From a virus (taxonomy: Duplodnaviria; Caudoviricetes), in IMG/VR virus record IMGVR_UViG_3300005459_000006, positions 4,721-68,720 of that record: a DNA stretch of 64,000 nt; one strand, written 5' to 3'. Positions 4,028-26,487 of this stretch are shown here, piece by piece. Every line of letters starts with the position of its first letter. The first letter of the stretch is position 1. The notes below the pieces were generated by a model. That model searched no databases. It was not told the DNA's origin and saw only the letters and a list, made by a program, of their open reading frames with translations. The translations under genes and the position numbers were made by a program.

Positions 4028-4642
4028 ATGCCCGGCCCGGCGACCCAGACGCTCATCCGGACGTATTCCGGGCTTGAGCTAGACGTGTGCCGTCTCGAGC
4101 CTGACTTAATCCGCATTGAAGACATAGCTCACGCTCTCGCCCTTTGTAATCGTTTCGCTGGTCACACCAAGCGACCGATTTCTGTCGCGCAGCACTCCGT
4201 CTATGCTGCGCGAATTGTTGCTGAGCTTCTTGCTAGAGGCCCAGACTCTGCCGTTAATCATCATAGTATTATTCGTCAGGCTCTTCTACATGACGCCGCA
4301 GAAGCGTATGTCGGTGACGTCACTAAGTGGCTGAAGCAGACCAAGATCTTCGAGAATTATCGTATTCTTGAAGATATCATACAAGCCAAGATCTACAGAA
4401 AGTTCGGCTGCCCTGTTGACCAACACGAATTCGTTAGCTACGCAGACCGCATCCTAGTCCTATTCGAGGGAAGGAAAGGGTTCGGTCCTGGATTTGTCAT
4501 TGACCATCCTGACTATCCCAATCTCAGCCAATCAGAAATCGATCTAATCGGGCCGTGGTCTCCGTGGTCCTGGAAGTCAGCCGAAGAACTCTTCCTTGTT
4601 CACTATCGAATGTATGCTGAGGTGATGGGTGCTGGAACTTAA
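4028..4642 (+). CDS. HD-domain phosphohydrolase (YfbR/5'-deoxynucleotidase-like)
   Basis: EDIAHALALCNRFAGH, SVAQHS, LLHDAAEAYVGD, YADRI. Confidence 0.9.
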   Translation: MPGPATQTLIRTYSGLELDVCRLEPDLIRIEDIAHALALCNRFAGHTKRPISVAQHSVYAARIVAELLARGPDSAVNHHSIIRQALLHDAAEAYVGDVTKWLKQTKIFENYRILEDIIQAKIYRKFGCPVDQHEFVSYADRILVLFEGRKGFGPGFVIDHPDYPNLSQSEIDLIGPWSPWSWKSAEELFLVHYRMYAEVMGAGT

Positions 4643-5492
4643 ATACGCCACCGGCTTCTTCGAGACAGCTCGTGAACGCTACAATATCAAGCTGAAGCGT
4701 GAAGCCGGTGAGCCACCTCCATGGACTACTGACAAGCAATTCCGTCAGTGGCGGTTCTGTCACGTTCACAGAGAGCACGACAAGACAACTCGGTGGTTCC
4801 GTGAGACTGTCCGTAAGCATCTGGACGAGCTCGCAGCCACTCGTGCGACCGTGGCCTTTCGATGGTTCAACCGAATCGAGACCGGGGAGCTCATTGTAGA
4901 TCTGCTGGTTGACAAGTGGGATTCCCAAGAAGCTGAACGCCGTCTCCGAGGAGTTGCTCCGATAGTCACCGGCGCCTACATCATCAAAGGCTATGATGGA
5001 TACCCAAAACTAGAGGGTGTCCTCAAGTGCATCGATGAGGCTTTTCCACGACTTCCTCCGATGGTTGAAAAGTGGAAGGCCAAACCCTCCCTCGAAGCCG
5101 CGTGGCGGGATCTCACGACCCTGAACTATCTGGGCGGTTTCATGGCCTATGAGATCGTCTCTGATCTGCGCTGGACACCGTTCTTATCAGTCGCGCCCGA
5201 TATACTCACATGGGCGAACGCTGGTCCCGGCTGTGCTCGAGGACTCAGCTGGACTGTGGATGGGCATGTCGGTCGCTTTGGCACTGGTCCCAGCGATCAG
5301 AGAACCATGCTCAGCCTGATGCGTGAGATTCTCGCCATGAGCCGGGACGAACAGTACTGGCCGCAGAAATGGCACACGTGGGAAATGAGGGAGGTAGAGC
5401 ACTGGATGTGCGAGTGGGACAAGTATTGTCGCGCTCGCAGCGGTGAGTCGATGAAACGAAAGTTCGTAGCTCCTCGGACAGCGTATGCTTGA
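4629..5492 (+). CDS. 5-hmdU DNA kinase family (formerly alpha-glutamyl/putrescinylthymine pyrophosphorylase clade 1)
   Basis: WTTDKQFRQWRFCHVHREHDKTT, FRWFN, GGFMAYEIVSDL, NAGPGCARGL, EVEHWMCEWDKY; lies next to a dUMP-modifying TS homolog. Confidence 0.8.
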   Translation: MLELKYATGFFETARERYNIKLKREAGEPPPWTTDKQFRQWRFCHVHREHDKTTRWFRETVRKHLDELAATRATVAFRWFNRIETGELIVDLLVDKWDSQEAERRLRGVAPIVTGAYIIKGYDGYPKLEGVLKCIDEAFPRLPPMVEKWKAKPSLEAAWRDLTTLNYLGGFMAYEIVSDLRWTPFLSVAPDILTWANAGPGCARGLSWTVDGHVGRFGTGPSDQRTMLSLMREILAMSRDEQYWPQKWHTWEMREVEHWMCEWDKYCRARSGESMKRKFVAPRTAYA

Positions 5493-6236: not shown

Positions 6237-7085
6237 ATGGATCTAACTGTGTTCATCCCAACTCGGGGACGCAGTTCAATGGAACATATCACGATCAATG
6301 AGATGAAGAAGTTTTCATCTCGCAAGCCCATCGTGGTTTGTCCATCCAAAGAAGCCTTCCACTACAAGAACTACGCCAATTCCGAGGTGATGGAATGCCC
6401 GCACGACGGGATTGGCCCGACTCGTCAGTTCATTCTGGAGAACAGTCCAACCCGCGGTGTCGTCATGCTCGACGACGACATGTATTTTTCCTACCGACCC
6501 ATCCCTACGCTTGGAGGAGCGGGCTGCTTGGAGCGAGTTACTGATATCGATCCAATGTTCCAATGGATTAGTGACCAGCTTGACTCGGGCTTCATGCACG
6601 GCGGTATTTCAGCACGACAGGGCAATCAGAACATCGAGCTTCAATCCGCCGATTGCATTCGGGTCAACAATGCTCACTTCTTCGATGCACAGGTCTATCG
6701 TAATCTCGGTCTCCGATTCGATGTCCTCCCCGTCATGGAAGATTTCTACGTTACGCTTTCACTTCTCTGTATGGGTTATCCAAATCGCGTGGCATACCAC
6801 TATTGTTGGAGTCAACGAGGCAGTGGTGCAAAGGGTGGATGCTCACTGTATCGAACTGCAGACCTCCAAGCGACCGCAGCCGAGCAGCTCCGTACTCTCT
6901 TTCCATCATACGTCAAAGTGGTCGAAAAAGAAAGTGACTCGCAGGTTGGCGTCATGGCGAAAAGAAAAGATGTCAACATCGCGTGGCTCGAGGCATGGAA
7001 GCGCGAGGGAATCCCTAACCACATCAAACTGACAGCATCCGACAACGGCTACAAGCCGGGGACTCCAGACTTGAGGAGACGATGA
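6237..7085 (+). CDS. GT-A fold glycosyltransferase (TET-associated/JGT-like), copy 2
   Basis: VFIPTRGR, GIGPTRQFIL, MLDDDM, MEDFYVTLSLL..G, GGCSLYR. Confidence 0.8.
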   Translation: MDLTVFIPTRGRSSMEHITINEMKKFSSRKPIVVCPSKEAFHYKNYANSEVMECPHDGIGPTRQFILENSPTRGVVMLDDDMYFSYRPIPTLGGAGCLERVTDIDPMFQWISDQLDSGFMHGGISARQGNQNIELQSADCIRVNNAHFFDAQVYRNLGLRFDVLPVMEDFYVTLSLLCMGYPNRVAYHYCWSQRGSGAKGGCSLYRTADLQATAAEQLRTLFPSYVKVVEKESDSQVGVMAKRKDVNIAWLEAWKREGIPNHIKLTASDNGYKPGTPDLRRR

Positions 7086-8182
7086 AAGTTCTTGAGGTTA
7101 GGAACGTCCACGAAGCTCTTCCTCGAGCCTTGCGCTTACTGCGACAGGAAGCTGTGTATCGCGAGAGTCGCAATGGACCGGTCTACGTGACGCCCTATCC
7201 AGTCACTACGGTCTACAACAGGCCATCCGAGCGAGTCATGCTCTGGCCTCAGCGGGATGCCAACCCCTTCTTCCACCTCTATGAATCGTTGTGGATGCTG
7301 GCAGGCCGCAACGATGTCGCTTCGCTCATCAAGTATGCGAAGCAGATGGCACAGTATTCGGACGACGGTAAGATCTTGCACGGTGCTTACGGGAAGCGAT
7401 GGCGCGATTGGTTCTCCCTTGGCTCTTCGAGGGACCAACTCCAAGTCATCGCCGAGCGCTTGACCAAAGATCCCAATGATCGTCGCTGTGTCCTACAGAT
7501 GTGGGACTCGGAGAAAGATCTTGGGAAGCCGTTCAAGGATGTGCCATGTAATACCATCACCACCTTCCAGAGAAATCTGGATGGGTCCTTGGACCTGACA
7601 ATCTTCTGCCGTTCCAATGACATCATCTGGGGTGCCTACGGAGCGAACGCAGTCCATTTCTCGATGCTCCTCGAATACATGGCAAATTGGATTGAATGTC
7701 CAGTGGGCCGTATGTATCAAGTGAGTACGAACTGGCACGCATACGCTGATATCTTGAAGGGCGTCATCAGTCTTGCCGAGATGATGGAATACAGTGGTTT
7801 CATCCATCAGCCATATCAAGAGGGATCTAAAGTTGATGTGACTGATTCCAGTACGATTGGCAAGAAGTACATCGAGACACCACGACTTCGGGTCTATCCC
7901 ATTCAAGGCACGATCAAAGAGGTGGACCGCAACATCGAGCTGATTTTGAAAGCTGCCGATGCGGATGGGATGGATGAAGCACTTCATTTCCGATATCGTT
8001 ATGCTGTTAACTGGTATGTGATGCTCCAAGCACATCAGGCATACCGCCAACGATCATCGGATGGAAGTCATTATCGTAAGGCGCTGGAATGCTTGGAGAC
8101 GGGCGACCAAGATTGTGACTGGATCGTCGCTGGCCAGGAATGGATGTCACGGCGGCTCAGCGCACATCTTGCCAAGGCATGA
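7082..8182 (+). CDS. thymidylate synthase family protein, probably dUMP hydroxymethylase
   Basis: NPFFHLYESLWMLAG, GAYGKRW, RRCVLQMWD, catalytic PCN, RSNDIIWGAYGAN (Asn at the dUMP-specificity position). Confidence 0.85.
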   Translation: MKVLEVRNVHEALPRALRLLRQEAVYRESRNGPVYVTPYPVTTVYNRPSERVMLWPQRDANPFFHLYESLWMLAGRNDVASLIKYAKQMAQYSDDGKILHGAYGKRWRDWFSLGSSRDQLQVIAERLTKDPNDRRCVLQMWDSEKDLGKPFKDVPCNTITTFQRNLDGSLDLTIFCRSNDIIWGAYGANAVHFSMLLEYMANWIECPVGRMYQVSTNWHAYADILKGVISLAEMMEYSGFIHQPYQEGSKVDVTDSSTIGKKYIETPRLRVYPIQGTIKEVDRNIELILKAADADGMDEALHFRYRYAVNWYVMLQAHQAYRQRSSDGSHYRKALECLETGDQDCDWIVAGQEWMSRRLSAHLAKA

Positions 8183-14374: not shown

Positions 14375-16462
14375 ATGGCCGCCCTTCCAGTCTGGCTAGC
14401 CGACTATTATAAACGTGGATTTCGGCTTATCTTTTATCCCCCTCAGCAAAAAGGCCCAAGTGGTCTTGAAGCGAAAGATTGGCAGAAGCAGAGTCACACC
14501 ACCGAAGATTACGAAAAGTGGCTCGCAAAAGGAGTTCAACCGAATGTAGGCGTTTTCCTTGGAGTCGAGATTCAGCCAGGGAAATATTTAGCTGACGTGG
14601 ATTTCGACTGGTCGGAGGGACTCCGCCTTCATCGAACGATCTTACCACCCACCGGATTCGGCTTCGGTCGTGACTCCCGCCGTATCTCCCATGTTTTCTA
14701 TACGACTCCTGAACCGATCATCAATGAAGCTTTCAAAGATATCGATGAGAAGACGACTTTCGTCGAAATCCGAGGAGCTACGAAGGACGGCGATATCGGT
14801 CAGCAAACGATGGTCCCTCCCTCGATTCATCCCTCCGGGGAGAAGGTTGAAATTCGTTCTGATGACGAGATAGGCCACGCGACTAATCTTCGCAGAGCTA
14901 TTGTCCTTTACGCCGTCGCCTGTATCTTATTCAAGCATCTGGGCGATCGAGGTCTCCTCCACGACACAAGACTTGGCACCGCAGGTTTCCTTCTCAAAGA
15001 AGGCGTCTCAGAAGCTGAGGTCATCAGTATCTGTACTGCCGTAGCAGAGGTCACTAGGAACGATGTAACGGACGTCGCCACAGCCGTCAAATCCACCGCC
15101 AACCGCCTCAAAGCGCACGAACCGGTCAAAGGTCGCAGCGAGCTGATCAAGGCCATCGGTAAGCAGGGTCAGCAAGTCCTCAACCGAATCATGCGATGGC
15201 TCGGCCGCGAGGATTTCGTCTACAACGATAAGGGCAAGATCCTTCCAGACAACGAATCGAACATAACCATCGCCCTAGACAAGATGGATGTCCGACTCGC
15301 CTACGATGAGTTCAACAACCATCAATATATCAAGTATAACGGCTACGAGGGACAGAACAAGGGCATCATCAACAACCAAGTCTGGCTTGATATCCAGTCT
15401 AATTTCCACTTCAAGCCCGGCCTGGAGTTCTACTATATCGTCACTGACTCGATCGCCTATAAGCGGAAATTCCACCCAGTCCGCGACTACTTGGATAGCC
15501 TGAAGTGGGATGGGATCCCCCGGCTCGAGGAGTGGCTAATCAAATACGGACAGGCCGCCGATTCGCCCTATACGCGCGCAGTGAGCGCGATCGTTCTGAT
15601 TGCGGCCGTTCGACGAATCCGTCAACCGGGATGCAAGTTCGACGAGCTCATGGTCCTTGAGAGCGAGCAGGGGATGTTCAAATCTTCTGCCCTGCGAGCC
15701 TTGTGCCCGAGGGAGGAATGGTTTTCCGATGATTTGCCACTGTATGCTGATGCGAAGGAAATCATCGAGAGGACGACTGGGAAATGGATCATCGAGGCTT
15801 CTGAGTTGAGCGGAATGAGCGCACGAAATATAGATCACCTGAAGTCTATGTTGAGCCGTGAGAAAGACGAAAGCAGACTGGCCTATGGCCGAACGAGGGA
15901 ATCGTATCCACGTCAATTTATCATCATTGGGACCACGAATTCCCATAAATATCTGCAGGATGAGACCGGGAACCGCCGATTCTGGCCCATCCGTCTGCAA
16001 CAATTCAACATACCCGGTTTGAAAGCCGAGCGGGATCAGCTCTGGGCCGAGGCCGCTTCGAGGGAGGCTCAGGGCGAATCAATTCGCCTTGATCCCGGGC
16101 TGTATGGACAAGCTACCGTCCAGCAAGAGCGACGACGAATCGAAGATCCTTGGGAGATCACCCTCCGAACTCAGTTCGGCCAGCCCTGCCCCGATGAAGG
16201 ATGCGAATACGATCCCGTCAAAGATCGTCGTCATAAGCGAATTTGTAAGATCTGTGGTTACATCGATACGGGTGGCTGTCAGGTATCTGTGGACGCCGTC
16301 TACTCCGCCCTAGCTCTCCCCGTATCTCACCGAACGCCTGCCATGAGCAAGCGAATCAGCGCTATCATGCAAGGCCTCGGCTTCGTGTATGGCGTGTATA
16401 AAGATGCATCCACAAAGGGAATTAGCACGCGAGCCTGGATCAAGAAGCCGCCTGAATCTTGA
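14375..16462 (+). CDS. bifunctional primase-polymerase fused to a VapE/VirE-like helicase
   Basis: N-terminal NVGVFLG..LADVDFD, RISH..Y, MVPPSIHPSG; C-terminal EQGMFKS, IIEASE, FIIIGTTN, DETGNRRFWP. Confidence 0.9.
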   Translation: MAALPVWLADYYKRGFRLIFYPPQQKGPSGLEAKDWQKQSHTTEDYEKWLAKGVQPNVGVFLGVEIQPGKYLADVDFDWSEGLRLHRTILPPTGFGFGRDSRRISHVFYTTPEPIINEAFKDIDEKTTFVEIRGATKDGDIGQQTMVPPSIHPSGEKVEIRSDDEIGHATNLRRAIVLYAVACILFKHLGDRGLLHDTRLGTAGFLLKEGVSEAEVISICTAVAEVTRNDVTDVATAVKSTANRLKAHEPVKGRSELIKAIGKQGQQVLNRIMRWLGREDFVYNDKGKILPDNESNITIALDKMDVRLAYDEFNNHQYIKYNGYEGQNKGIINNQVWLDIQSNFHFKPGLEFYYIVTDSIAYKRKFHPVRDYLDSLKWDGIPRLEEWLIKYGQAADSPYTRAVSAIVLIAAVRRIRQPGCKFDELMVLESEQGMFKSSALRALCPREEWFSDDLPLYADAKEIIERTTGKWIIEASELSGMSARNIDHLKSMLSREKDESRLAYGRTRESYPRQFIIIGTTNSHKYLQDETGNRRFWPIRLQQFNIPGLKAERDQLWAEAASREAQGESIRLDPGLYGQATVQQERRRIEDPWEITLRTQFGQPCPDEGCEYDPVKDRRHKRICKICGYIDTGGCQVSVDAVYSALALPVSHRTPAMSKRISAIMQGLGFVYGVYKDASTKGISTRAWIKKPPES

Positions 16463-17398: not shown

Positions 17399-17853
17399 TT
17401 CTCTTGATAGCAAGAATATGCGATTCACGATTTCGCCGTTGACCTCCCTCGACCCGCCTGCCGCATCCCGAGGTCCGCCTCCCTCGAACCGATGCCCAGA
17501 TGGACGATTGGACAGAATTCAAAAATGGAAAAGATTGGAAACGCGGATATCAACCGAACTTTAAGAGCGTCCAACGTTGAAACTCAGTGTAATAAAACGA
17601 TGCAGATTGCACAAAATTGCACACTTCTGCACATCTTACATATCTGTAATTAGAGGCCCTTGACCTTTCCTACGTTCCCTCGATTAGTTGGGAGGATGGG
17701 ATAGGAAGTCGGGGATTTCGGTGACCTCAATGCCCCAATATCGGGCAGGGCGATGTCGGGCTCCTATCCAATTGGCACGATCTATGCTAGGAGCCTCCCA
17801 CTTACAATATTGGTAGTTGCAAACGGTTTAAAACTGTGGTATCATGCTTTCCT

Positions 17854-18591
17854 ATGGCAATCGAAGCTGGTCAACGGTATACGGCAGGGCATAGCGGCTG
17901 CCGGAAGTTTCCCCTTCCGGTGCAAGTAGTGTGCCTGAACCCTGTCAAACCGTGGGTCACGGTCAGGGACGAGCTCGGCGTGCGAAGTGTACGACTTAGC
18001 ACGATGTTGCACTGCATTGCCCACGGTTGCATTGCGCTCCTGGATAGCAAGAATCGTGCCACCAATTCTTACAAAATTGGTGCTTGCAATCCAGCAAAAA
18101 CTGTGGTAGAATGCTCTCATGCTGGCGCACGGGACGCGTCGGCAAACAACGGCAGGCCAATAACGGCCGAAAAGGAGATTAGCATGGCGGAAAACAACGG
18201 CGTTCAGACCCTCACGTTCTACAAGAACCACAAGGGCATCTACAGCTCGTTCAGGCTCGCGGGCGTTCGCGGCTCGGTCAACATCACCAACAAGATGTTC
18301 GTCGACGGGGTCATCCCGCAGACCATCCAGGTCAGCGGCCTCGTGCCGGAGGGCAGCGGCGAGGTCCCGGCGGACGTCGACCGCGCGGCGGCAGCGGCGG
18401 CGAAGGCGCAGGAGCGCGCGGAAAAGGCCAAGGCGAAAGCCGAGGCGCGGGCGGCGAAGGCGCAGGCCATCGCCGACAAGGCCAAGGCAGCGGCCGAAGC
18501 GGCTCTGGCTCGGGCGGCCAAGGCGCAGGAGGCGGCAAGCAAGTCCGGTGCCACGTCCGGCGAGCAGACCGGCGAGACGGCGGGCATGTAG
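17854..18591 (+). CDS. possible N-terminally extended form of the Ala/Lys-rich protein, from a near-leaderless start
   Basis: ATG 8 nt after the -10 box at 17840-17845; frame stays open through the next promoter into the 18184 ORF. Confidence 0.3.
   Translation: MAIEAGQRYTAGHSGCRKFPLPVQVVCLNPVKPWVTVRDELGVRSVRLSTMLHCIAHGCIALLDSKNRATNSYKIGACNPAKTVVECSHAGARDASANNGRPITAEKEISMAENNGVQTLTFYKNHKGIYSSFRLAGVRGSVNITNKMFVDGVIPQTIQVSGLVPEGSGEVPADVDRAAAAAAKAQERAEKAKAKAEARAAKAQAIADKAKAAAEAALARAAKAQEAASKSGATSGEQTGETAGM
18184..18591 (+). CDS. Ala/Lys-rich helical-tail protein, paralog A
   Basis: AAGGAG RBS; N-terminal beta domain QTLTFYKNHKGIYSSFRL plus AAAAKAQERAEKAKAK tail. Confidence 0.85.
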   Translation: MAENNGVQTLTFYKNHKGIYSSFRLAGVRGSVNITNKMFVDGVIPQTIQVSGLVPEGSGEVPADVDRAAAAAAKAQERAEKAKAKAEARAAKAQAIADKAKAAAEAALARAAKAQEAASKSGATSGEQTGETAGM

Positions 18592-18601
18592 TTTGCAGGG
18601 A

Positions 18602-18627
18602 CCGGGCTGACCTTCGGGTTGGCCCGG
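18602..18627 (+). terminator. GC hairpin with C(UUCG)G loop after paralog A
   Basis: CCGGGCTGACC-TTCG-GGTTGGCCCGG. Confidence 0.6.
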
Positions 18628-18967
18628 TCCTTGCAGACGAGGATTTCGGGCACGGAGCTTGCAGGGACGGCCTGAGCGTATGCAAGTTCCGTGCCACTGA
18701 TTTCCGTTAGTCGCAAGGCGACTTCCTACGATCTTCGCGACGACCGCGAGGATGCGATGGGAGGTCGGGTTCTTCCCTCCTCGGATATTGGGGCTATCGG
18801 CTCCTGGACCTCGGCAAATCTGCACGATTCTGCACAGACCTGCACACATTCTAGCATCTTACAATTTTGGTACTTGCATTCTGGCGGGCACCGTGCTAGA
18901 ATGGTCTTACGTTGGGCGCACGGTTCGCGACCTAACAAACAAGCGGCAAGGCCGCTGAAAGGTGTGT

Positions 18968-19339
18968 ATGGATACCATTCTGCAGACGCTGACGTTCCAC
19001 AAGACCCACAAGGGCATCTACAGCTCGTTCCGCCTGCCCGGAAACCGCGGGTCGGTCAACATCACCAACAGCCTGTTCATCGGCGGCGTGGTCCCCGCCA
19101 CGATCCAGGTGTCCTGCCTTGTGCCGGAGGGCTTCGGGCAGGTGCCCGATGACGCGGAAAAGGCCGCCGTGGCGGCTGCGCGGGCACAGGAAAAGGCCGA
19201 CAAGGCGCGCGAGAAGGCCGAAGCGCGGGTGGCGCGCGCGAACGCCATCGCCGAGAAGGCGCAGGCGGCTGCGGCCGCTGCGCTCGCTCGGGCGCAGGCT
19301 GCGGCGGAGCGGGTCAGCGGCGACGAAGCTGGCGCGTAG
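18968..19339 (+). CDS. Ala/Lys-rich helical-tail protein, paralog B
   Basis: QTLTFHKTHKGIYSSFRL..RGSVNITN, clearly homologous to 18184-18591; followed by a similar hairpin. Confidence 0.85.
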   Translation: MDTILQTLTFHKTHKGIYSSFRLPGNRGSVNITNSLFIGGVVPATIQVSCLVPEGFGQVPDDAEKAAVAAARAQEKADKAREKAEARVARANAIAEKAQAAAAAALARAQAAAERVSGDEAGA

Positions 19340-19557
19340 TTTGCAAGGGACGGGTCAGCCTCCGGGCTGGCCCGTTTCCTACGTTCCTCGCCTGAGGTCG
19401 TAGGATGGGATAGAAATCACGATCATCGATACCACGGATACTAGGGCTATTGGCGATCCTCCTGCACAATCCTGCACAGAGAACTCCCGGATTACAAAGA
19501 TAGTAGTTGCATCCAGTTTAAAACTGTGGTATCATGCTCTTACATTGGAGGTGGGCA

Positions 19558-19884
19558 TTGAACGCGATTAACTTCATCGAGGCCATCAAGTCGGTTCGGA
19601 CGCTCGGTCACAACCGTTACGAGGTCCGTCAAGGCATCAACGGTCAGGTCATCCTCGAGCCGGTCCCGTCGGTTGGCCTGAAGGAGGCCAAGGACTTCAT
19701 CGAGGAGGTCATGGCGATGGGCGTCCGTCGTTATCTGCAAGAGCAGATCAACGACTCCGACCGGAAGCTGGCTGATCGCATCCGCGAGCGGGACTATCAG
19801 GCACGGCGGGAGCAGCAGTCGTCGGCTTTTATCTCGGCTGATGATGCGGCTCCGCATCGCTACGACGACGACATCAAGTTCTAG
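19558..19884 (+). CDS. hypothetical protein with a ribosomal L7/L12 C-terminal-like motif (VGLKEAKDFIE)
   Basis: GGAGG RBS then TTG start; motif similarity only. Confidence 0.55.
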   Translation: MNAINFIEAIKSVRTLGHNRYEVRQGINGQVILEPVPSVGLKEAKDFIEEVMAMGVRRYLQEQINDSDRKLADRIRERDYQARREQQSSAFISADDAAPHRYDDDIKF

Positions 19885-19955
19885 CAAGAATCGTGCCGGA
19901 TGCGATTACAATCTTTGTAGTTGCATCCGGCAGAATTCTGTGGTAGAATGTTCTC

Positions 19956-20063
19956 ATGGTTAAGCACTGCGCCGCCTGTCACGCCGAAACGGAATTCGTG
20001 GTTACGCCGAACGGGCTCCGGTGCCTGATCTGCAAACTGATGAGAATGAGGTGGATCCGATGA
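19956..20063 (+). CDS. 35-aa leaderless Zn-finger peptide (not in ORF track)
   Basis: ATG 6 nt after TAGAAT; MVKHCAACHAETEFVVTPNGLRCLICKLMRMRWIR. Confidence 0.6.
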   Translation: MVKHCAACHAETEFVVTPNGLRCLICKLMRMRWIR

Positions 20064-20260
20064 GTGATGACCGCTCGATCAAGATGCACTGCGACGAGGA
20101 GATGCGCTCGCAGATCGAGTTCTGTGTCCGTCGCTATCGCTGGGAGGTCGAGCGATGGATTGAGCGGAAGCGAGCTGCGGGGCAGCCGATTGGCGACCTC
20201 CAGCGTGAGCTCGAGCTCACCGACAAATGCCTGAAGGAGGCACAGGAGGCGGGGACCTAG
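20060..20260 (+). CDS. small helical hypothetical protein
   Basis: ATGA coupling and GAGGTGG RBS. Confidence 0.65.
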   Translation: MSDDRSIKMHCDEEMRSQIEFCVRRYRWEVERWIERKRAAGQPIGDLQRELELTDKCLKEAQEAGT

Positions 20261-20475
20261 CATGAAACATGCCATCGCCTACGGGCTGACGCTCCGGAAA
20301 GACGGAGTAATTTCTTAGATTCCCTCTGGGCGAGCTGAGGACTCGCCCAGAGGCGTCGTGCAATGAACTCCTCGATGCCCCAGTCCGCAAGGCTCTTTTC
20401 CTCTTCAATTACAAAATTAGTGGTTGCAAACCGTTTAAAACTGTGGTATAATGCTTTCATGATGAGGGAGGTCAA

Positions 20476-20814
20476 ATGGACGGACTCGTAACGGTGGAGG
20501 TCAAGCTGCGGGCGGTGATTCGGATCCCGCGCAACATCAACTTCCGGCTGAAGCAGGGCAACGACGCCACGTTCCAGCTCTGGGAGACAGACCTCGGGAA
20601 TCGGCTCGGGGGACAGGCGGTCGTCGACGAGGTGAACGAGGTCATCGCCCTCGCCGTGGGACAGCGAAATCACGCTCAGGGCGAGCGGGCCAACGAAACG
20701 CCTGTCGAGAACCTCGGCGACGTGACGCGCGAGACGCTGGCGGAGCATCTCGCCGACCGCGTGGTCGAGATGACGATCGCCGGTCGTCGCGGGCAGAAGC
20801 GGAGGAAGAAGTAG
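20476..20814 (+). CDS. hypothetical protein with basic C-terminus
   Basis: own promoter and GGAGG RBS. Confidence 0.75.
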   Translation: MDGLVTVEVKLRAVIRIPRNINFRLKQGNDATFQLWETDLGNRLGGQAVVDEVNEVIALAVGQRNHAQGERANETPVENLGDVTRETLAEHLADRVVEMTIAGRRGQKRRKK

Positions 20815-20885
20815 CACGAAATATGCCAGATGCAATTACAATCTTTGTAGTTGCATCTGGCGATGTTCTGTGGTAGAATGCTCTT

Positions 20886-21122
20886 ATGCCAAACAACGTT
20901 CCGACCGCACGCTTCAACATCGCCGTCGACGAATACGAACTCGAAATTGTTCGTCAGGCTCTTCGCGCCTACCGCAGCAAGCTCCTTGCTGAGCTCGATG
21001 AACTCATCGAAACGAGCAAGGACCTCTGCCCGACGGACAATCCGGAGAACAATCCGGACGTCTCGACGACTCGTGAATGGCTGGACCGTCTCGCTGTGCT
21101 TCGCGAGCGCGTCGCTGCCTAA
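20886..21122 (+). CDS. leaderless hypothetical protein
   Basis: ATG 6 nt after TAGAAT. Confidence 0.75.
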   Translation: MPNNVPTARFNIAVDEYELEIVRQALRAYRSKLLAELDELIETSKDLCPTDNPENNPDVSTTREWLDRLAVLRERVAA

Positions 21123-21317
21123 AGCAAGAATCGGGCCAGTTCTGCAAACGGACTGGCCCGACCTCTTTCCCTCTTCCTCGAGGGAGTCGGGAGGATTGGA
21201 CAGAAATCGGTCTGGGCGATTCTGGAAATGCCCCAATACGAACAACGAAATATGAACAACGAAAAACGAAACATGAAATGGCTTGCATTTCCCGGGAACC
21301 TGTGGTAGAATGCTCTT

Positions 21318-21533
21318 ATGCCGAAAACGAAACTCGTTTCATGGGTTGTGTACCACGTTCACGTCAAGATCAAGGCGGACACGAAGGAGCGCATCGAGGA
21401 GGTCGCCAAGAAGACTCGCCGGGACATCGGCTTCGATATTCGAGGCCGCGGCATTTGCTTGGAGGTGGAAGATGATTCGCTAATCGTCAATCTCGAGAAG
21501 ATCTGCGACGCCGAGGAAGTCCGGGTGGACTGA
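21318..21533 (+). CDS. leaderless hypothetical protein
   Basis: ATG 6 nt after TAGAAT. Confidence 0.75.
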   Translation: MPKTKLVSWVVYHVHVKIKADTKERIEEVAKKTRRDIGFDIRGRGICLEVEDDSLIVNLEKICDAEEVRVD

Positions 21534-21600
21534 ACACTTACAGAATTGGTAGTTGTCAATTACCACGTTCTGTGTTACAATGCTCTGCATGGAGGTCAGC

Positions 21601-21807: not shown

Positions 21808-22228
21808 GGGACCGGAGTGAGGTTGGCCGAGCGCTGACCTCACTCTGCTCAGTTTTCGTTTTGATTGGAAATCGCCCGCAAATCCCGCCTTTAGAGCGCA
21901 TCACGATGGCTCCCCGGCTCAACTTGAGCCAGATCGTGCAATTCCGTCCGCCCATCCGTTAACGCCCATCGCCACCAATCCCGCCAGAACTCGCCAAAAG
22001 GGGATAGGAACGTCCAGCCGAAGTATGCCCGATACTCGGGGTATCGGTCCTATCCCATCCCCGATATGCAACGGTCGTGCCAGACCGTGTTCTACCAAAA
22101 TGTAACACGAAGTACGGAAATGGCACACTTTCCTTTACGGAAGTGCACATCGTTGCACGATTTCGCGCTGGCATCGGCCATGCACTCTTAGTCGGCGGCA
22201 ATTACGCCAGCTTCGAGGTAAAACTTAC

Positions 22229-22429
22229 ATGACCAAATTTGTTATCCAGGCGCATACCAACGGCACGAAGATTGCAATCCCCGCTCCGGGCCATACGGCC
22301 GAACGCGCCCTGCATAACGTGCGCCGGAACCGCTGGGTCCGCCACGCCGCCGTGCTTACCGTTTTTGAACGCAAAACCGGAAATTTGGTTTTGGCGGTCA
22401 ACGGTCCGCGCCGCGCGGCTTCCTACTAG
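22229..22429 (+). CDS. small basic hypothetical protein
   Basis: GAGGT RBS; sigma54-like motif at 22169 upstream. Confidence 0.55.
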   Translation: MTKFVIQAHTNGTKIAIPAPGHTAERALHNVRRNRWVRHAAVLTVFERKTGNLVLAVNGPRRAASY

Positions 22430-22437
22430 CAAAATCC

Positions 22438-22463
22438 GGGCCAGCCTTCGGGCTGGCCCTTTT
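22438..22463 (+). terminator. hairpin with C(UUCG)G loop and short U tract
   Basis: GGGCCAGCC-TTCG-GGCTGGCCC-TTTT. Confidence 0.7.
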
Positions 22464-22480
22464 CTGCAAGGGATGTACCA

Positions 22481-22738
22481 ATGACGAATAACCAATTTGA
22501 CATTTACGATACTGCCCTCCTCGAGATGGCATGTGATTTGTATCAGTCTATCGGCCACGACCTCCAGGCCGCGGCCGGTCTTGGCACGGAAGATGCATAC
22601 GTCGAGGATGAGGAAGTGGCATCCATCTTGCAGGACCGGATGCGCGATTATCTGCTGGAACATGGCACGAATCTTGTTCCGCTCTGGGATGCCCTGTCCG
22701 ACGACAAGCGCTTTCGCTTGTGCCTGATGGCACTATAG
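22481..22738 (+). CDS. acidic hypothetical protein
   Basis: AAGGGA upstream; 85 aa. Confidence 0.55.
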   Translation: MTNNQFDIYDTALLEMACDLYQSIGHDLQAAAGLGTEDAYVEDEEVASILQDRMRDYLLEHGTNLVPLWDALSDDKRFRLCLMAL

Positions 22739-22950
22739 GTTAGAATCCCGCTGGAAGTCGCCAAACGGCGATATCCAGTGGGTTGATTTTAAGCTGCAGA
22801 CTCGGGGTATCGGGTCCAGGCCATGCGCCGTTCCTGTCTGTGTTCACCCAAGATGTAACACAGGCGCCAGAATTGTACACAGCTCGTGCACGATCTTGCG
22901 CGGACCTGCACACTTCTATACGTGGCACGACCCATGCTTATCTATAGGGC

Positions 22951-23185: not shown

Positions 23186-23212
23186 ACACGTAACCCTAGC
23201 AAAGGATGTGCC

Positions 23213-23401
23213 ATGAAGGATACCATTATTGTAATCATCGTCTTGGCGTGCCTCTGGCTCGCTTCTTGCAGTTCGCCCGTCGCGCCTGCACACATCTGCA
23301 CGACCCAGCCGAGGGCATATGCCCTACCTGACGGAAGTGTAAGTATGGAGGTGGACACGTATGCAAGTCCCGTGCCGTGTCCTGCTGTGCCCATCCTGTA
23401 A
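23213..23401 (+). CDS. small lipoprotein
   Basis: MKD plus hydrophobic core plus lipobox LAS-C; AAGGA RBS. Confidence 0.6.
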   Translation: MKDTIIVIIVLACLWLASCSSPVAPAHICTTQPRAYALPDGSVSMEVDTYASPVPCPAVPIL

Positions 23402-23629: not shown

Positions 23630-23896
23630 ATGACTCTTGGCACCGTTCTTGCTCGTGGTTGGCAGGCTCCCTCCGGTTTGGCCGCATACCCGCAGGTCCC
23701 CGTTGGCACGGACATTGCAGCGGCTACCTACCGCTACAATGCCTCCTTGGCACGGTTCCTGCGGCTTACAGAAATGGCAGTGGCACGGCGCAGCAAGATT
23801 CGTGCCGCCCATCGCCGCTACCTGCGCCGCATTGGCATGCCTCTTGCTCCCCTGCCCAAGGGTAGCAAGTATCGTGCCAAGGGTCGTAAACCCTAG
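23630..23896 (+). CDS. basic hypothetical protein; may be secondary to the RpoN-motif array it overlaps
   Basis: ORF track; six sigma54-like motifs inside. Confidence 0.35.
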   Translation: MTLGTVLARGWQAPSGLAAYPQVPVGTDIAAATYRYNASLARFLRLTEMAVARRSKIRAAHRRYLRRIGMPLAPLPKGSKYRAKGRKP

Positions 23897-24242
23897 CACT
23901 AGCAAGGGCCGTGCCATCACCTCCGGTGGCACGGCTTATTTCCACGTACTAATTCTGTAATACATATCTGTAAGTACCATCCTGTAATTACAATCCTGTT
24001 CTTACAATTTCGTTCGGCGGGTTCCGGGTTTCGCGTCGCTCGTCCATCGCGCATCCCCAATCCCGCTCCCCAAATTGACTTCACCTATTCCCGGAAACCG
24101 AAACCCGCCAGCTAAATCACGGAATTCCCAACCCGCCTCCCAAAGCCAACCGGAACAGCCCTTGACATTATTATTCGCGCGGGCGCGAGCGCGTAGCAAG
24201 GAACATGCCAAGCACCGTTCACCGTGTAACTCTTACATGGGC

Positions 24243-24271
24243 TTGCAATCGAAGACGTCTTGTGGTATACT
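24243..24271 (+). promoter_or_regulatory. sigma70-type promoter upstream of the packaging genes
   Basis: TTGCAA-17 nt-TATACT preceded by TGTGG. Confidence 0.75.
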
Positions 24272-24492
24272 GAATTTTTCCGTAGGGTTGAGCACGCTCC
24301 AAGGGTGAATTCGGTGACAAACACCTTCCCTCGAATAGCGGCGATTCTGGTATTCCTTCTGCTTGCGTGGCAGATCTATATCAGTATCTGGGATTGTCGT
24401 AACGCTGGCTCACTCGTAGCGTGCAAAGCGATTACGATTGGCAACCACACTTTCGCCGCCGAGTTCACGAGTCGAAGGCACTAGGTATAGGA

Positions 24493-24906
24493 ATGACCAA
24501 CATTTTTGACGAGCACCTGCCTCCTCTTCCCTCGAAGGAGGAGTCCGCGACGGAGGAACGGTCACGTTCCAACAAGCGAGATGTGGAAGGGGTGGGAGTG
24601 CTCGCGCTGCGACGTGGGCAGATCCGGCTGCAAGAACTCAGTGGTGAGGCGTTTGATACTCTGCGGGAAGCTATGAGATTCGCGGAGTATCCGGTGGCTG
24701 TATCCGCGGCCAAGGCTGTGCTGGATCGGTCGGGGTTTGGGCCGACATCGACGCTCAAGATTCAGGAAGGCGATCTGGAAGAACTGTCGACTTCGGAGCT
24801 TGCCGCTCTGGCGATCAAGCTCGCTTCTCGTTTAGCACCAAATCATCAATCCGAATCGAACGTATCAGTTGAAACGCCGGGACCGACTCTGAAACGAGTC
24901 CATTAG
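24493..24906 (+). CDS. putative terminase small subunit
   Basis: helical protein directly upstream of TerL; AAKAVLDRSG motif typical of TerS-like proteins. Confidence 0.6.
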   Translation: MTNIFDEHLPPLPSKEESATEERSRSNKRDVEGVGVLALRRGQIRLQELSGEAFDTLREAMRFAEYPVAVSAAKAVLDRSGFGPTSTLKIQEGDLEELSTSELAALAIKLASRLAPNHQSESNVSVETPGPTLKRVH

Positions 24907-24993: not shown

Positions 24994-26487
24994 TTGCCGC
25001 CGGAAGATGCACTGATCTTAATCACAAGAGAACTGGAACGACGGCGATTTTTGGAACGGCCCGACGAGTGGGTACGGGAACGTCTGCGCGAACATATGTG
25101 GTCGTTCCAGAAACAAGTTATTCTGGCTGTGCAGCAGCATCGTTTGGTGCTGGTAAAGACTTGTCATGGGGTGGGCAAATCGTGGACGGCGGCTCGGACA
25201 GCCGGTCACTGGTTGGATGTTCATCCGCGGGGTAAGGCTTTCGTAGTGACGAGCGCTCCATCTGCGCCGCAGATCAAGGCGATTCTGTGGAGGGAGATCG
25301 GGCGGGTTCACGACATTGGAGGGCTAGACGGACGGGTCAATCAGTTGGAGTGGTACATGACGGTTGCGTCGGGGAGGGAGGAACTCGTCGCATTCGGTCG
25401 TAAACCTGATGACTATGATCCGGCGGCTTTTCAGGGTATCCATGCACGATTCGTTTTAGTCATCCTCGATGAGGCTAACGGGATTCGAGGAGCTTTGCAT
25501 GAAGCCGCGTCGTCGCTCATTGCGAACGACTATGGGCGCATGCTCATGATCGGGAATCCGGACGATCCTCAGGGGGAATACTTTGAAGCGTCGAAGCCAG
25601 GATCAGGATGGTTCGTCCTCCAAGTCGGGGCATTCGACTCGCCGAACTTTACGGGCGAAGAAATCCCAGCTGAGCTTCGGCATGACCTTATCGGCAGACT
25701 CTACGTTGAAGAGAAAAGGCGGAAATGGGCGCCGAAATGGGTCTGGGTTGACAAAGAAGGTCAGCCTTCGAGTCCTGAAGAAGGAGTTAGGGTAGTCCCA
25801 CCGGCAGACATCAGGCCAGAAGAGATCAATCCGTTCTGGTCGTCAAAAATACTCGGCGAATTCCCAGCCGTCTCCCTCGAGCAGTCCCTCATTCCTCTTT
25901 CCTGGATCCTTGCAGCTCAAAAACGGACTCTGATGAGGCGCGGAGGCGGCACCATCGGGTTAGACGTTGGGGCGGGCGGGGATGCATCGTGCGGAGCACA
26001 CAACGATTCGGGTGTTTGCCGGATTCTTTGGGAGGACAACAACCCTGACACGATGCAGACGTGTGGTAAGGCCGTGGAGGCGTTGCATGAAGTCGGGGCG
26101 GAGAAGGTTCATGTAGACGTAATCGGAATCGGTCGGGGAGTGGTGGATCGGGGGAAGGAACTTGGTGAGCCTTTCTTTGAAGTCAACGTTTCTGATGCAC
26201 CAGATGACCCGAAGCGATTCCTCAACCACCGATCCGAGATTTGGTGGGATGTACGGACTGCTTTTGAGCGTGGTCAGATCGATTTGGACCCTGAAGACGA
26301 GGATACTGCGGCGGAACTCGTTGAAATTAGGTATAAGAGGTCCTCCGTTGGCAAAATCCAGATTGAATCAAAGCAGGAGGCCAAAAATCGAGGTGTGAAG
26401 TCGCCGAATCGCGCAGAATCTATCATGCTGTCGTATGCGAAGATTCGGAAAAAGTATACTGAAGCAACATGGGGAGCTAAGAACTAA
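24994..26487 (+). CDS. terL: terminase large subunit
   Basis: Walker A HGVGKS, Walker B VILDEA, GNP, nuclease GLDVG and VDVIG, SPNRAES. Confidence 0.93.
   Translation: MPPEDALILITRELERRRFLERPDEWVRERLREHMWSFQKQVILAVQQHRLVLVKTCHGVGKSWTAARTAGHWLDVHPRGKAFVVTSAPSAPQIKAILWREIGRVHDIGGLDGRVNQLEWYMTVASGREELVAFGRKPDDYDPAAFQGIHARFVLVILDEANGIRGALHEAASSLIANDYGRMLMIGNPDDPQGEYFEASKPGSGWFVLQVGAFDSPNFTGEEIPAELRHDLIGRLYVEEKRRKWAPKWVWVDKEGQPSSPEEGVRVVPPADIRPEEINPFWSSKILGEFPAVSLEQSLIPLSWILAAQKRTLMRRGGGTIGLDVGAGGDASCGAHNDSGVCRILWEDNNPDTMQTCGKAVEALHEVGAEKVHVDVIGIGRGVVDRGKELGEPFFEVNVSDAPDDPKRFLNHRSEIWWDVRTAFERGQIDLDPEDEDTAAELVEIRYKRSSVGKIQIESKQEAKNRGVKSPNRAESIMLSYAKIRKKYTEATWGAKN

Follow-up and report, generated by a model that had tools for sequence, protein, structure and literature searches.

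A repeated stop-to-start linker with a backward-facing sigma-54-like box in the ORFan region of an uncultured soil phage

Our analysis of a 64,000-nucleotide (nt) stretch of an uncultured soil phage genome (hereafter the window, covering bases 4721-68720 of the 68.7-kb IMG/VR phage record IMGVR_UViG_3300005459_000006, rated 85% complete) revealed a 77-nt direct repeat that runs from a TAG stop codon to an ATG start codon and is present in four copies. In its full form, the repeat joins a stop codon, a minus-strand box resembling the −24/−12 promoter element of sigma-54 (RpoN) RNA polymerase, a hairpin and a plus-strand sigma-70 promoter. We read this composite as a self-contained intergenic linker of a hyperplastic early region of ORFan genes, similar to the promoter-early stem-loops (PeSLs) of T4-type phages, with the sigma-54-like box being a member of an array that is packed against the stop codon, and we give this reading about an even chance of being right. 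It is carried by the anatomy of the repeat, by its conservation between unrelated genes in a related phage, by the gain and loss of genes at its edge among strains, and by selection on the cores of the boxes.

The linkers occupy a region at 17.7-24.3 kb that contains about 16 small genes and separates two blocks of a genome in which nearly all genes are oriented on the plus strand. On one side lies the replication block, with a family A DNA polymerase, an SNF2 helicase and a primase/VapE protein, the last of which ends at 16462; on the other, from about 24.4 kb, the packaging/structural block contains the terminase (24994-26487), followed by the portal and later genes.

Anatomy and conservation of the 77-nt linker

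The reference copy (19882-19958, plus strand) starts with a TAG at 19882-19884 that overlaps a minus-strand box at 19883-19898. A hairpin-forming palindrome follows at about 19894-19932, and then a promoter at 19921-19949 composed of the −35 hexamer TTGCAT (19921-19926) and the extended −10 element TGTGGTAGAAT, which ends at 19949; the ATG at 19956-19958 lies 6 nt past the −10. The second copy (20812-20888, plus strand, 83% identical to the reference) repeats this order, with the TAG at 20812-20814, the box at 20813-20828, the hairpin at 20824-20862, the promoter at 20851-20879 (−35 at 20851, −10 ending at 20879) and the ATG at 20886. The third (18045-18121, plus strand, 70%) has a perfect box at 18046-18061, a −35 at 18084, a −10 ending at 18112 and a different, weaker hairpin formed by CACCAATT and AATTGGTG; its TAG (18045-18047) is the stop of no convincing gene. 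In the fourth copy (20385-20461, plus strand, 65%), the promoter has stayed intact (−35 at 20424), but there is no attached stop codon and the box position has decayed, with GCAAG retained and GG lost. A further unit (24194-24271, plus strand) consists of a minus box at 24195-24210, a gap with a small palindrome and a sigma-70 promoter at 24243-24271, which stands ahead of the packaging/structural genes.

The distance from the end of the box to the −35 is 22 nt in each of the first three copies (−35 starts at 18084, 19921 and 20851) and 32 nt in the 24195 unit (−35 start at 24243), as reported in an earlier note on this DNA, which had proposed a fixed cassette of stop codon, antisense RpoN motif, 22-nt gap and sigma-70 promoter. 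The common order and spacing of the three copies stand, but the TAG at 18045 is not used as a stop. Moreover, since the three cassettes are paralogous copies of one repeat (70-83% identity), the shared 22 nt is one inherited feature and not three coincidences.

Related phages were metagenome contigs reached via terminase homologues. One of them, L197, shares 70% terminase identity and the same primase-to-terminase layout with the window phage. Only 5 of the 18 genes in its region have a homologue in the window, and at the DNA level the two phages resemble each other almost only in the linkers: positions 19875-19959 and 20812-20884 of the window match L197 positions 4529-4615 and 4853-4942 at 77-82% identity, and at 18047 and 20812 the homology begins at the box itself. 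In an alignment of six linker copies from the two phages, the invariant columns were the GCA of the −12, the TGCC of the −24, a TTAC-A box, the TTGCA of the −35, the extended −10 and the ATG, with a variable box spacer and outer stem. The gap measures 22, 23 and 23 nt in the homologous L197 cassettes and 20, 10, 45 and 56 nt in the remaining L197 pairs of box and promoter, and another relative, L199, retains a 24195-type unit with a gap of 31 nt. The 22-nt spacing on which the earlier note had relied is thus kept at 22-23 nt in the homologous cassettes of a relative but not in the other pairs of L197 and L199 (10, 20, 31, 45 and 56 nt). Among more distant relatives, L201 and L203 have clusters of boxes upstream of the terminase, and L200 and L202 are without any boxes.

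The strain set comprised five variants at 94-99.9% identity, found among metagenome contigs by a pattern search, and contigs of four soil/rhizosphere runs. In L204 and L208, an extra 73-codon zinc-ribbon gene is present between the TAG at 20814 and the cassette; the inserted gene starts at a TAG-ATG junction, and its own terminal TAG again overlaps the box. L205 carries a 26-codon open reading frame (ORF) inserted at 20258, the TAA of which overlaps the box. In variant contigs, positions 22431-22798 are swapped for 60 other bases, beginning right past the TAG. In L207 (96% identical), the 24195 box is replaced by unrelated sequence, with the small palindrome and the promoter retained. Two contig joints (19182>24166 and 20388>20865) were not used because of their short sides and low depth. 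The resemblance to PeSLs drawn in the earlier note is well supported by the position of the cassette between unrelated ORFans in L197 and by these whole-gene insertions that abut the stop codon; the comparison of gene content between modules that it had suggested set 13 of 18 L197 genes absent from the window against cassettes that are 77-82% identical. It should be added that the inserted 73-codon gene (L204 1260-1487, L208 425-652), a 35-codon gene at 19956-20063 and the L205 insert encode CxxC pairs and/or a C-terminal (K/R)WIR, and they look like a small family of zinc-ribbon genes undergoing gain, loss and truncation.

The imperfect palindrome that the earlier note had seen across the −24 and the −35 in the 19.9- and 20.8-kb copies proved real, folding at −30.1 and −28.0 kcal/mol (z −7.0 and −7.5). 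Overall, the cassette hairpins fold at about −28 to −31 kcal/mol (z about −6.4 to −7.5), and their 3′ arm overlaps the next −35. Across four copies, two compensatory double substitutions have occurred in the stem (G:C to A:U and A:U to C:G), and an invariant U:G pair is valid only in the plus-strand RNA; together, these pairs fit a structure of the plus-strand RNA only.

Ten plus-strand sigma-70 promoters were found in the window (starts at 17817, 18084, 18874, 19507, 19921, 20424, 20851, 21283, 21553 and 24243), made up of a TTGCAA or TTGCAT −35, a 17-nt spacer and an extended −10 of the TGTGG-TAGAAT type and its variants. Of the 24 promoters in the window and L197, 17 are followed by an ATG at 6-8 nt past the −10, so that the predicted transcript starts at or beside the start codon and would be leaderless. 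The cassette copies of the window have no Shine-Dalgarno sequence before the start codon, with the ATG placed 6 nt past the −10. Examples of this design in the window are found at 19949-19958, 20879-20888 and 21311-21320. Several L197 units and the window promoter at 21553 show the arrangement ATG-GAGG-N5-ATG, in which the ATG at the start site is succeeded by a second, in-frame ATG led by a Shine-Dalgarno sequence.

As we picture it, the linker would provide a stop codon for whichever gene lies upstream and one predicted docking site for the host sigma-54 RNA polymerase, pointing back into that gene. Plus-strand RNA reading through the stop would fold into a very stable hairpin, the 3′ arm of which overlaps the next −35; transcription would restart from the near-consensus extended −10 sigma-70 promoter, and the next ATG, situated at the predicted transcription start, would give the downstream gene a leaderless message. 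The box would be one of an array of about 30 sites that fill whichever positions of the region are free or tolerant, and the 22-23 nt up to the −35, handed down with the repeat, would accommodate the TTAC-A box and the hairpin arm. The host sigma-54 holoenzyme would probably occupy the box in a closed complex that lies back to back with the sigma-70 promoter, with the predicted starts about 83 bp apart. A local effect, be it damping of the promoter or blocking or opposing of read-through, would be secondary and is unproven.

Sigma-54-like boxes and overlapping signals at gene ends

Boxes were scored as putative sites matching the 16-mer TGGCAC-N5-TTGCW, in which the GG and GC cores are 10 nt apart. 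Minus-strand boxes of this kind lie at 18046-18061, 19883-19898, 20259-20274, 20813-20828, 21123-21138, 22428-22443 and 24195-24210. With at most one mismatch, TGGCAC-N5-TTGC occurs 33 times in the window, compared with 4.0 ± 2.1 in shuffled sequences, and 30 of these matches fall within 17.7-24.3 kb on both strands, which amounts to an array of about one site per 200 bp. The 12-base curated sigma-54 consensus, TGGCACG-N4-TTGCW, is matched exactly at six sites. Among close strains, the ten core positions of all boxes vary at 2.0%, compared with 4.6% for the spacers and 4.9% for the rest of the region (Fisher p = 0.009), and four of the seven core changes come from the lost 24195 site. This comparison of strains indicates that the box cores are under selection. 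Their conservation is bipartite and asymmetric, in that the GG is invariant and the base following the −12 GC is A or T, a pattern that suits sigma-54 better than it does a protein binding to a dyad.

In full agreement with the earlier note, four ORFs (ending at 19884, 20260, 20814 and 22429) have a TAG stop that overlaps the −12 end of a minus box at offset 0, and the TAA at 21122 abuts a box at offset 2. In total, we found 11 overlaps at offset 0, namely four in the window, six in L197 (with genes called independently) and one in the relative L198. The box flank TTGCTA reads TAG on the other strand, and the contact of box and stop codon probably comes from tight packing. An example outside the repeat is the minus-strand feature at 20258-20274, where the TAG of ORF 20060-20260 overlaps the box TGGCATGTTTCATGCT; no promoter is adjacent, and the next −35 is 150 nt off. 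TAG is a common stop throughout the genome (13 of 35 large ORFs), and its use by itself was for this reason rejected as a special feature.

Stop codons are also drawn from other parts of the regulatory signals. Three of them lie within the 5-nt spacers of plus-strand sigma-54-like boxes, at 18591 (box 18582-18597), 19339 (box 19330-19345) and L197 7895 (box 7885-7900). The two window genes concerned are paralogous and are followed directly by a terminator-like hairpin, the 3′ arm of which is another box (18620). In L197, one gene reads through a sigma-54 box and a −35 and stops at the TAG of the TAGAAT −10 of the next promoter (6310-6312), and the TGA stop of another gene lies inside a promoter spacer (4197-4199). 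Starts can be supplied as well: at 23198-23215, a perfect minus box provides a Shine-Dalgarno-like AAGGA in its spacer and an ATG after GTGCC, and the ORF started by this box (23198-23213) is a 62-codon putative lipoprotein gene (23213-23401) with the lipobox LASC. Collectively, these cases show a heavy overlap of coding with regulatory signals in the lineage, and given that stops are drawn from box spacers, a −10 and a promoter spacer, and a Shine-Dalgarno sequence and an ATG from a box, we read the overlap of stop codon and box mainly as tight packing of a site that is of use to the phage in many copies.

At a subclass of gene ends, the −24 position of the box coincides with the 5′ arm of a terminator-like hairpin (window 21123, 22428 and 23901; L197 2589, 3585 and 7321; L198 1139 and 1404). 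At 21120-21160 (plus strand), a TAA abuts the half-box AGCAAGAATC, the −24 position of which is the 5′ arm GGGCCAGT of such a hairpin. At 22427-22480 (plus strand), the TAG overlaps a box variant, TGGCCC..., that serves as 5′ arm to a bidirectional terminator (22438-22459), and a second minus box lies beyond the terminator at 22465-22480. At the ends of genes, boxes and terminators thus overlap or turn into one another. A terminator scan in the minus-strand direction gave the single match 22438-22459, and a general minus-strand terminator composed of the cassette hairpin and the box spacer was rejected because its tail is U-poor and the U:G pair becomes C:A on the minus strand.

The same consensus, often as the identical 16-mer, is arrayed in many unrelated viral contigs of 40-55% GC. 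Among 120 exact 16-mer copies in such contigs, the TAG closed an open frame of at least 40 codons in 9% of cases, compared with 10% for control TAGs, and a sigma-70-like partner was nearby in only 4 of the 120. We accordingly rejected the fusion of box and stop codon as a general property, and the fusion of the box with both stop codon and promoter is specific to the lineage of the window phage. Of the unrelated IMG/VR contigs with the identical 16-mer (L084 15-130, L048 4226-4410 and L105 7739-7880), some carry a perfect sigma-54 site within a 25-bp unit repeated five times in tandem, and others contain convergent site pairs, TGGCAC-N5-TTGCTAATGCAA-N5-ATGCCA, arrayed at 54-bp spacing.

Some boxes differ from those of the cassettes in their surroundings. 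The tandem unit at 17773-17845 (plus strand) has a plus box at 17773-17788, 28 nt 5′ of the promoter at 17817-17845. It is orthologous to a unit of L197 (box at 2755) in which box and promoter likewise face the same way, 29 nt apart, and a phased TGCAC cluster lies 145-165 nt upstream of the window unit. Such clusters precede the plus-strand boxes at 17773, 22169, 22923 and 23519, and none was found on the enhancer (upstream) side of the cassette boxes. TGCAC recurs at exact 10-nt steps at 17608-17632, 18821-18845, 19463-19477, 22144-22158, 22887-22911 and 23287-23301; these clusters sit 5′ of the sigma-70 promoters at 18874 and 19507 and of the plus-strand boxes at 17773, 22169 and 22923. They probably form a binding array for a regulator.

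Competing explanations for the stop-proximal box

Several points weigh against a self-contained linker with a packed box. The presence of rpoN in the host is assumed. The strain junctions lie at the stop-codon edge with GTAG microhomology only, and none falls inside the cassettes, where recombination between cassettes, the mechanism of PeSLs, would place them; such recombination is no more than plausible, because conserved linkers alternate with unrelated genes. The hairpin of the two best copies has no U-tract, which makes terminator activity doubtful. The minus orientation of boxes predominates about 3:1 at gene ends, which could reflect a function instead of compatibility with stop codons. 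Finally, the near-whole-turn values of the gaps hint at a face-of-helix constraint that packing does not predict. All minus-box gaps of up to 32 nt (10, 20, 22, 23, 31 and 32 nt) are within 2 nt of multiples of 10.5 nt, and the suggestion of the earlier note that the 32-nt gap is one helical turn longer than 22 nt is compatible with this; with about five independent cassette types, however, such phasing is only suggestive.

This phasing, the predominant minus orientation and the back-to-back placement of box and promoter, 22-23 nt apart in six copies of the cassette from two phages, speak for a coupled divergent pair, in which the sigma-54 holoenzyme would deliberately regulate its neighbours by collision with the alpha carboxy-terminal domain (alpha-CTD) at the UP element, as a head-on obstacle to read-through or through an activator-fired, timed antisense shut-off, much as the earlier note had imagined. 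A box at the stop codon would allow the antisense RNA to span the whole ORF and the promoter to stay non-coding, and there are published precedents in the dmp system (as cited in PMC3152329) and in the antisense RpoN sites of Yersinia (PMC7657599). We nevertheless consider such coupling unlikely, although it is the most serious of the competitors. Strain L207 lacks the 24195 box and keeps the promoter, and the box has decayed in the 20385 copy. Outside the repeat family the spacing varies (10, 20, 23, 31, 32, 45 and 56 nt); of the 24 promoters in the window and L197, 11 lack a box within 60 nt, most boxes stand without a promoter, and two are oriented in the same direction as theirs. The cassette boxes face the 3′ end of the upstream gene, and no minus-strand ORF conserved independently of the plus-strand genes was found as a sense-direction target; the predicted antisense start falls in ordinary coding sequence, GC-rich and different from copy to copy. 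The enhancer side without phased TGCAC clusters and the unrelated phages in which the identical 16-mer has no sigma-70 partner argue in the same direction. No match to the enhancer-binding activator domain PF00158 and no sigma-54 gene were found in the 85%-complete record, but an activator may be encoded by the host. Slightly more doubtful again is the specific proposal that the box is a working part of the cassette, with a parked sigma-54 polymerase that would insulate the early genes and, on an activator or stress signal, fire antisense RNA against each ORFan, as an off-switch travelling with the shuffled genes. On balance, the results somewhat weaken the case for regulatory coupling of the box to the promoter.

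The box may also be read by another protein, such as a phage or host DNA-binding factor that recognizes the near-dyad TAGCA-N7-TGCCA as a repressor or as a boundary marker of the 'stoperator' type. TAGCA and TGCCA do form an imperfect inverted repeat, several copies are more palindromic than sigma-54-like (GCATG-AAA-CATGC at 20259, GCACG-N3-CGTGC in L197), the phage encodes many small ORFans, zinc-ribbon proteins among them, and rpoN is only assumed to be present in the host. What makes this explanation improbable to us is that the asymmetry is kept, with the GG of one side invariant and an A or T past the −12 GC where a dyad would need C, and that six sites fit the full 12-base consensus. The recurrence of the consensus in unrelated viral contigs also fits a universal host factor better. 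Least probable of all, in our view, is an element acting at the RNA level only, an A-rich stretch and a GC stem forming the upstream half of a (bidirectional) terminator or a 3′-end stabilizer, in which the likeness to sigma-54 would be incidental. The eight sites with the −24 position in a strong terminator-like hairpin and the T-rich complement of the box spacer, reminiscent of a reverse-direction terminator tail, speak for it. Yet some boxes have no hairpin, such as L197 3021 (z 0.2), and six lie inside ORF 23630-23896, and these hairpin-less and coding-sequence boxes exclude a purely RNA-level explanation. Furthermore, the invariant alignment columns are the sigma-54 cores, which vary far less among strains than the spacers, the two best cassette hairpins are the ones without a U-tract, and a general test for −24 boxes in stems gave just 49 compared with 36 expected. 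A self-contained linker that carries one member of the sigma-54-like array thus remains our preferred reading.

Known systems and further features of the region

PeSLs were described in the T4-type phages RB49/phi1, T4/PST and KVP40/nt-1 (Arbiol et al. 2010, PMC2839356; Comeau et al. 2014, PMC4122927) as units of a stop codon, an AT-rich stretch, a sigma-70 promoter, a stem-loop of variable register and a start codon within a hyperplastic region (PMC2839356, PMC4122927). The window linker likewise has a strong sigma-70-type promoter and a stem-loop able to overlap the −35, and it lies between ORFans of a hyperplastic region whose flanked genes are inserted, deleted and replaced among relatives. 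However, the lineage of the window phage is unrelated (siphovirus-like, GC-rich and from soil), its best copies have no Shine-Dalgarno sequence (leaderless) and no U-tract after the hairpin, and the unit bears an opposite-strand sigma-54 −24/−12 box fused to the stop codon, which is absent from the PeSL definition. Whereas PeSLs are known for crossovers inside the units, for mini-circles and for a stem-loop that terminates transcription, the window linker is known from sequence, with junctions at the stop edge. By analogy, the linker can be regarded as a functional analogue of the PeSL and not as a member by descent.

Divergent, intragenic and antisense sigma-54 sites have been studied in other settings. 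In the dmp system of Pseudomonas putida CF600, the activity of the sigma-54 promoter Po modulates the divergent sigma-70 promoter Pr in cis (Johansson et al. 2008, as cited in PMC3152329), and the two promoter types face apart as in the window cassette. As far as that account goes, the shared dmp intergenic region holds activator sites (UAS), and integration host factor (IHF) helps the bound activator to reach the polymerase, whereas in the window the −24 box is just 22 nt from the −35, with no evident activator site, and the sigma-54 side points into a completed gene instead of an operon. In Escherichia coli and Yersinia pseudotuberculosis, intragenic and antisense RpoN sites are known at which the holoenzyme can sit transcriptionally silent (PMC4591121, PMC7657599), and mutation of an antisense RpoN site in Yersinia altered expression of the sense gene (PMC7657599). 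The near-consensus window boxes without a downstream gene resemble these sites, which are scattered single chromosomal sites, unlike the phage array of about one per 200 bp with a subset at a fixed linker position. In Pseudomonas phage YuA, one sense-oriented promoter region of the sigma-54 type has been confirmed (Ceyssens et al. 2008, as cited in PMC10914365); the window phage shares its general siphovirus make-up, with PolA, but neither arrays nor a fusion to stop codons nor a repeated linker is part of the cited description of YuA.

Promoter/stem-loop linkers explain how small accessory genes can be swapped with their regulation left intact, and to our knowledge such linkers have so far been known with sigma-70 promoters and hairpins only. 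The window linker adds a conserved, selected and backward-facing putative sigma-54 site fused to the stop codon. If the box binds the host enzyme, the phage would use or neutralize, per gene cassette, a sigma-54 route that is almost unstudied in phages.

Searches gave little further information on the phage or its host. Of 10 flanked small genes scanned, none reached a Pfam curated cut-off or had an informative PHROG match, and an Rfam scan of 16.4-25.0 kb gave no match. No RNA run was listed as containing the stretch. Comparison with isolated phages gave no DNA match; the portal and terminase types differ from those of T4-type myoviruses, and among isolates, the closest terminases are those of Arthrobacter phages (35% identity). 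IMG/VR searches by terminase peptide patterns and by the cassette pattern returned no close relatives, and neither did one by the promoter pattern, which gave 72 single matches at chance level. Relatives of the terminase were present in 52 contigs of bacterial genomes (Chloroflexota, Actinomycetota, Alphaproteobacteria, Saccharibacteria bins and others), none of which had at least four boxes, and they gave no host pointer.

Minor features of the region include short GAACAACGAAA-like repeats at 21225-21282, upstream of the promoter at 21283, and CTGTAA units spaced by about 11-13 nt in the non-coding stretch at 23940-24010 that precedes the 24195 box. Just 3′ of the promoter at 24243, contigs of three runs and strain L207 carry a deletion of about 170-179 bp (24319-24499), which takes out most of a 74-codon ORF preceding the gene at 24421-24906.

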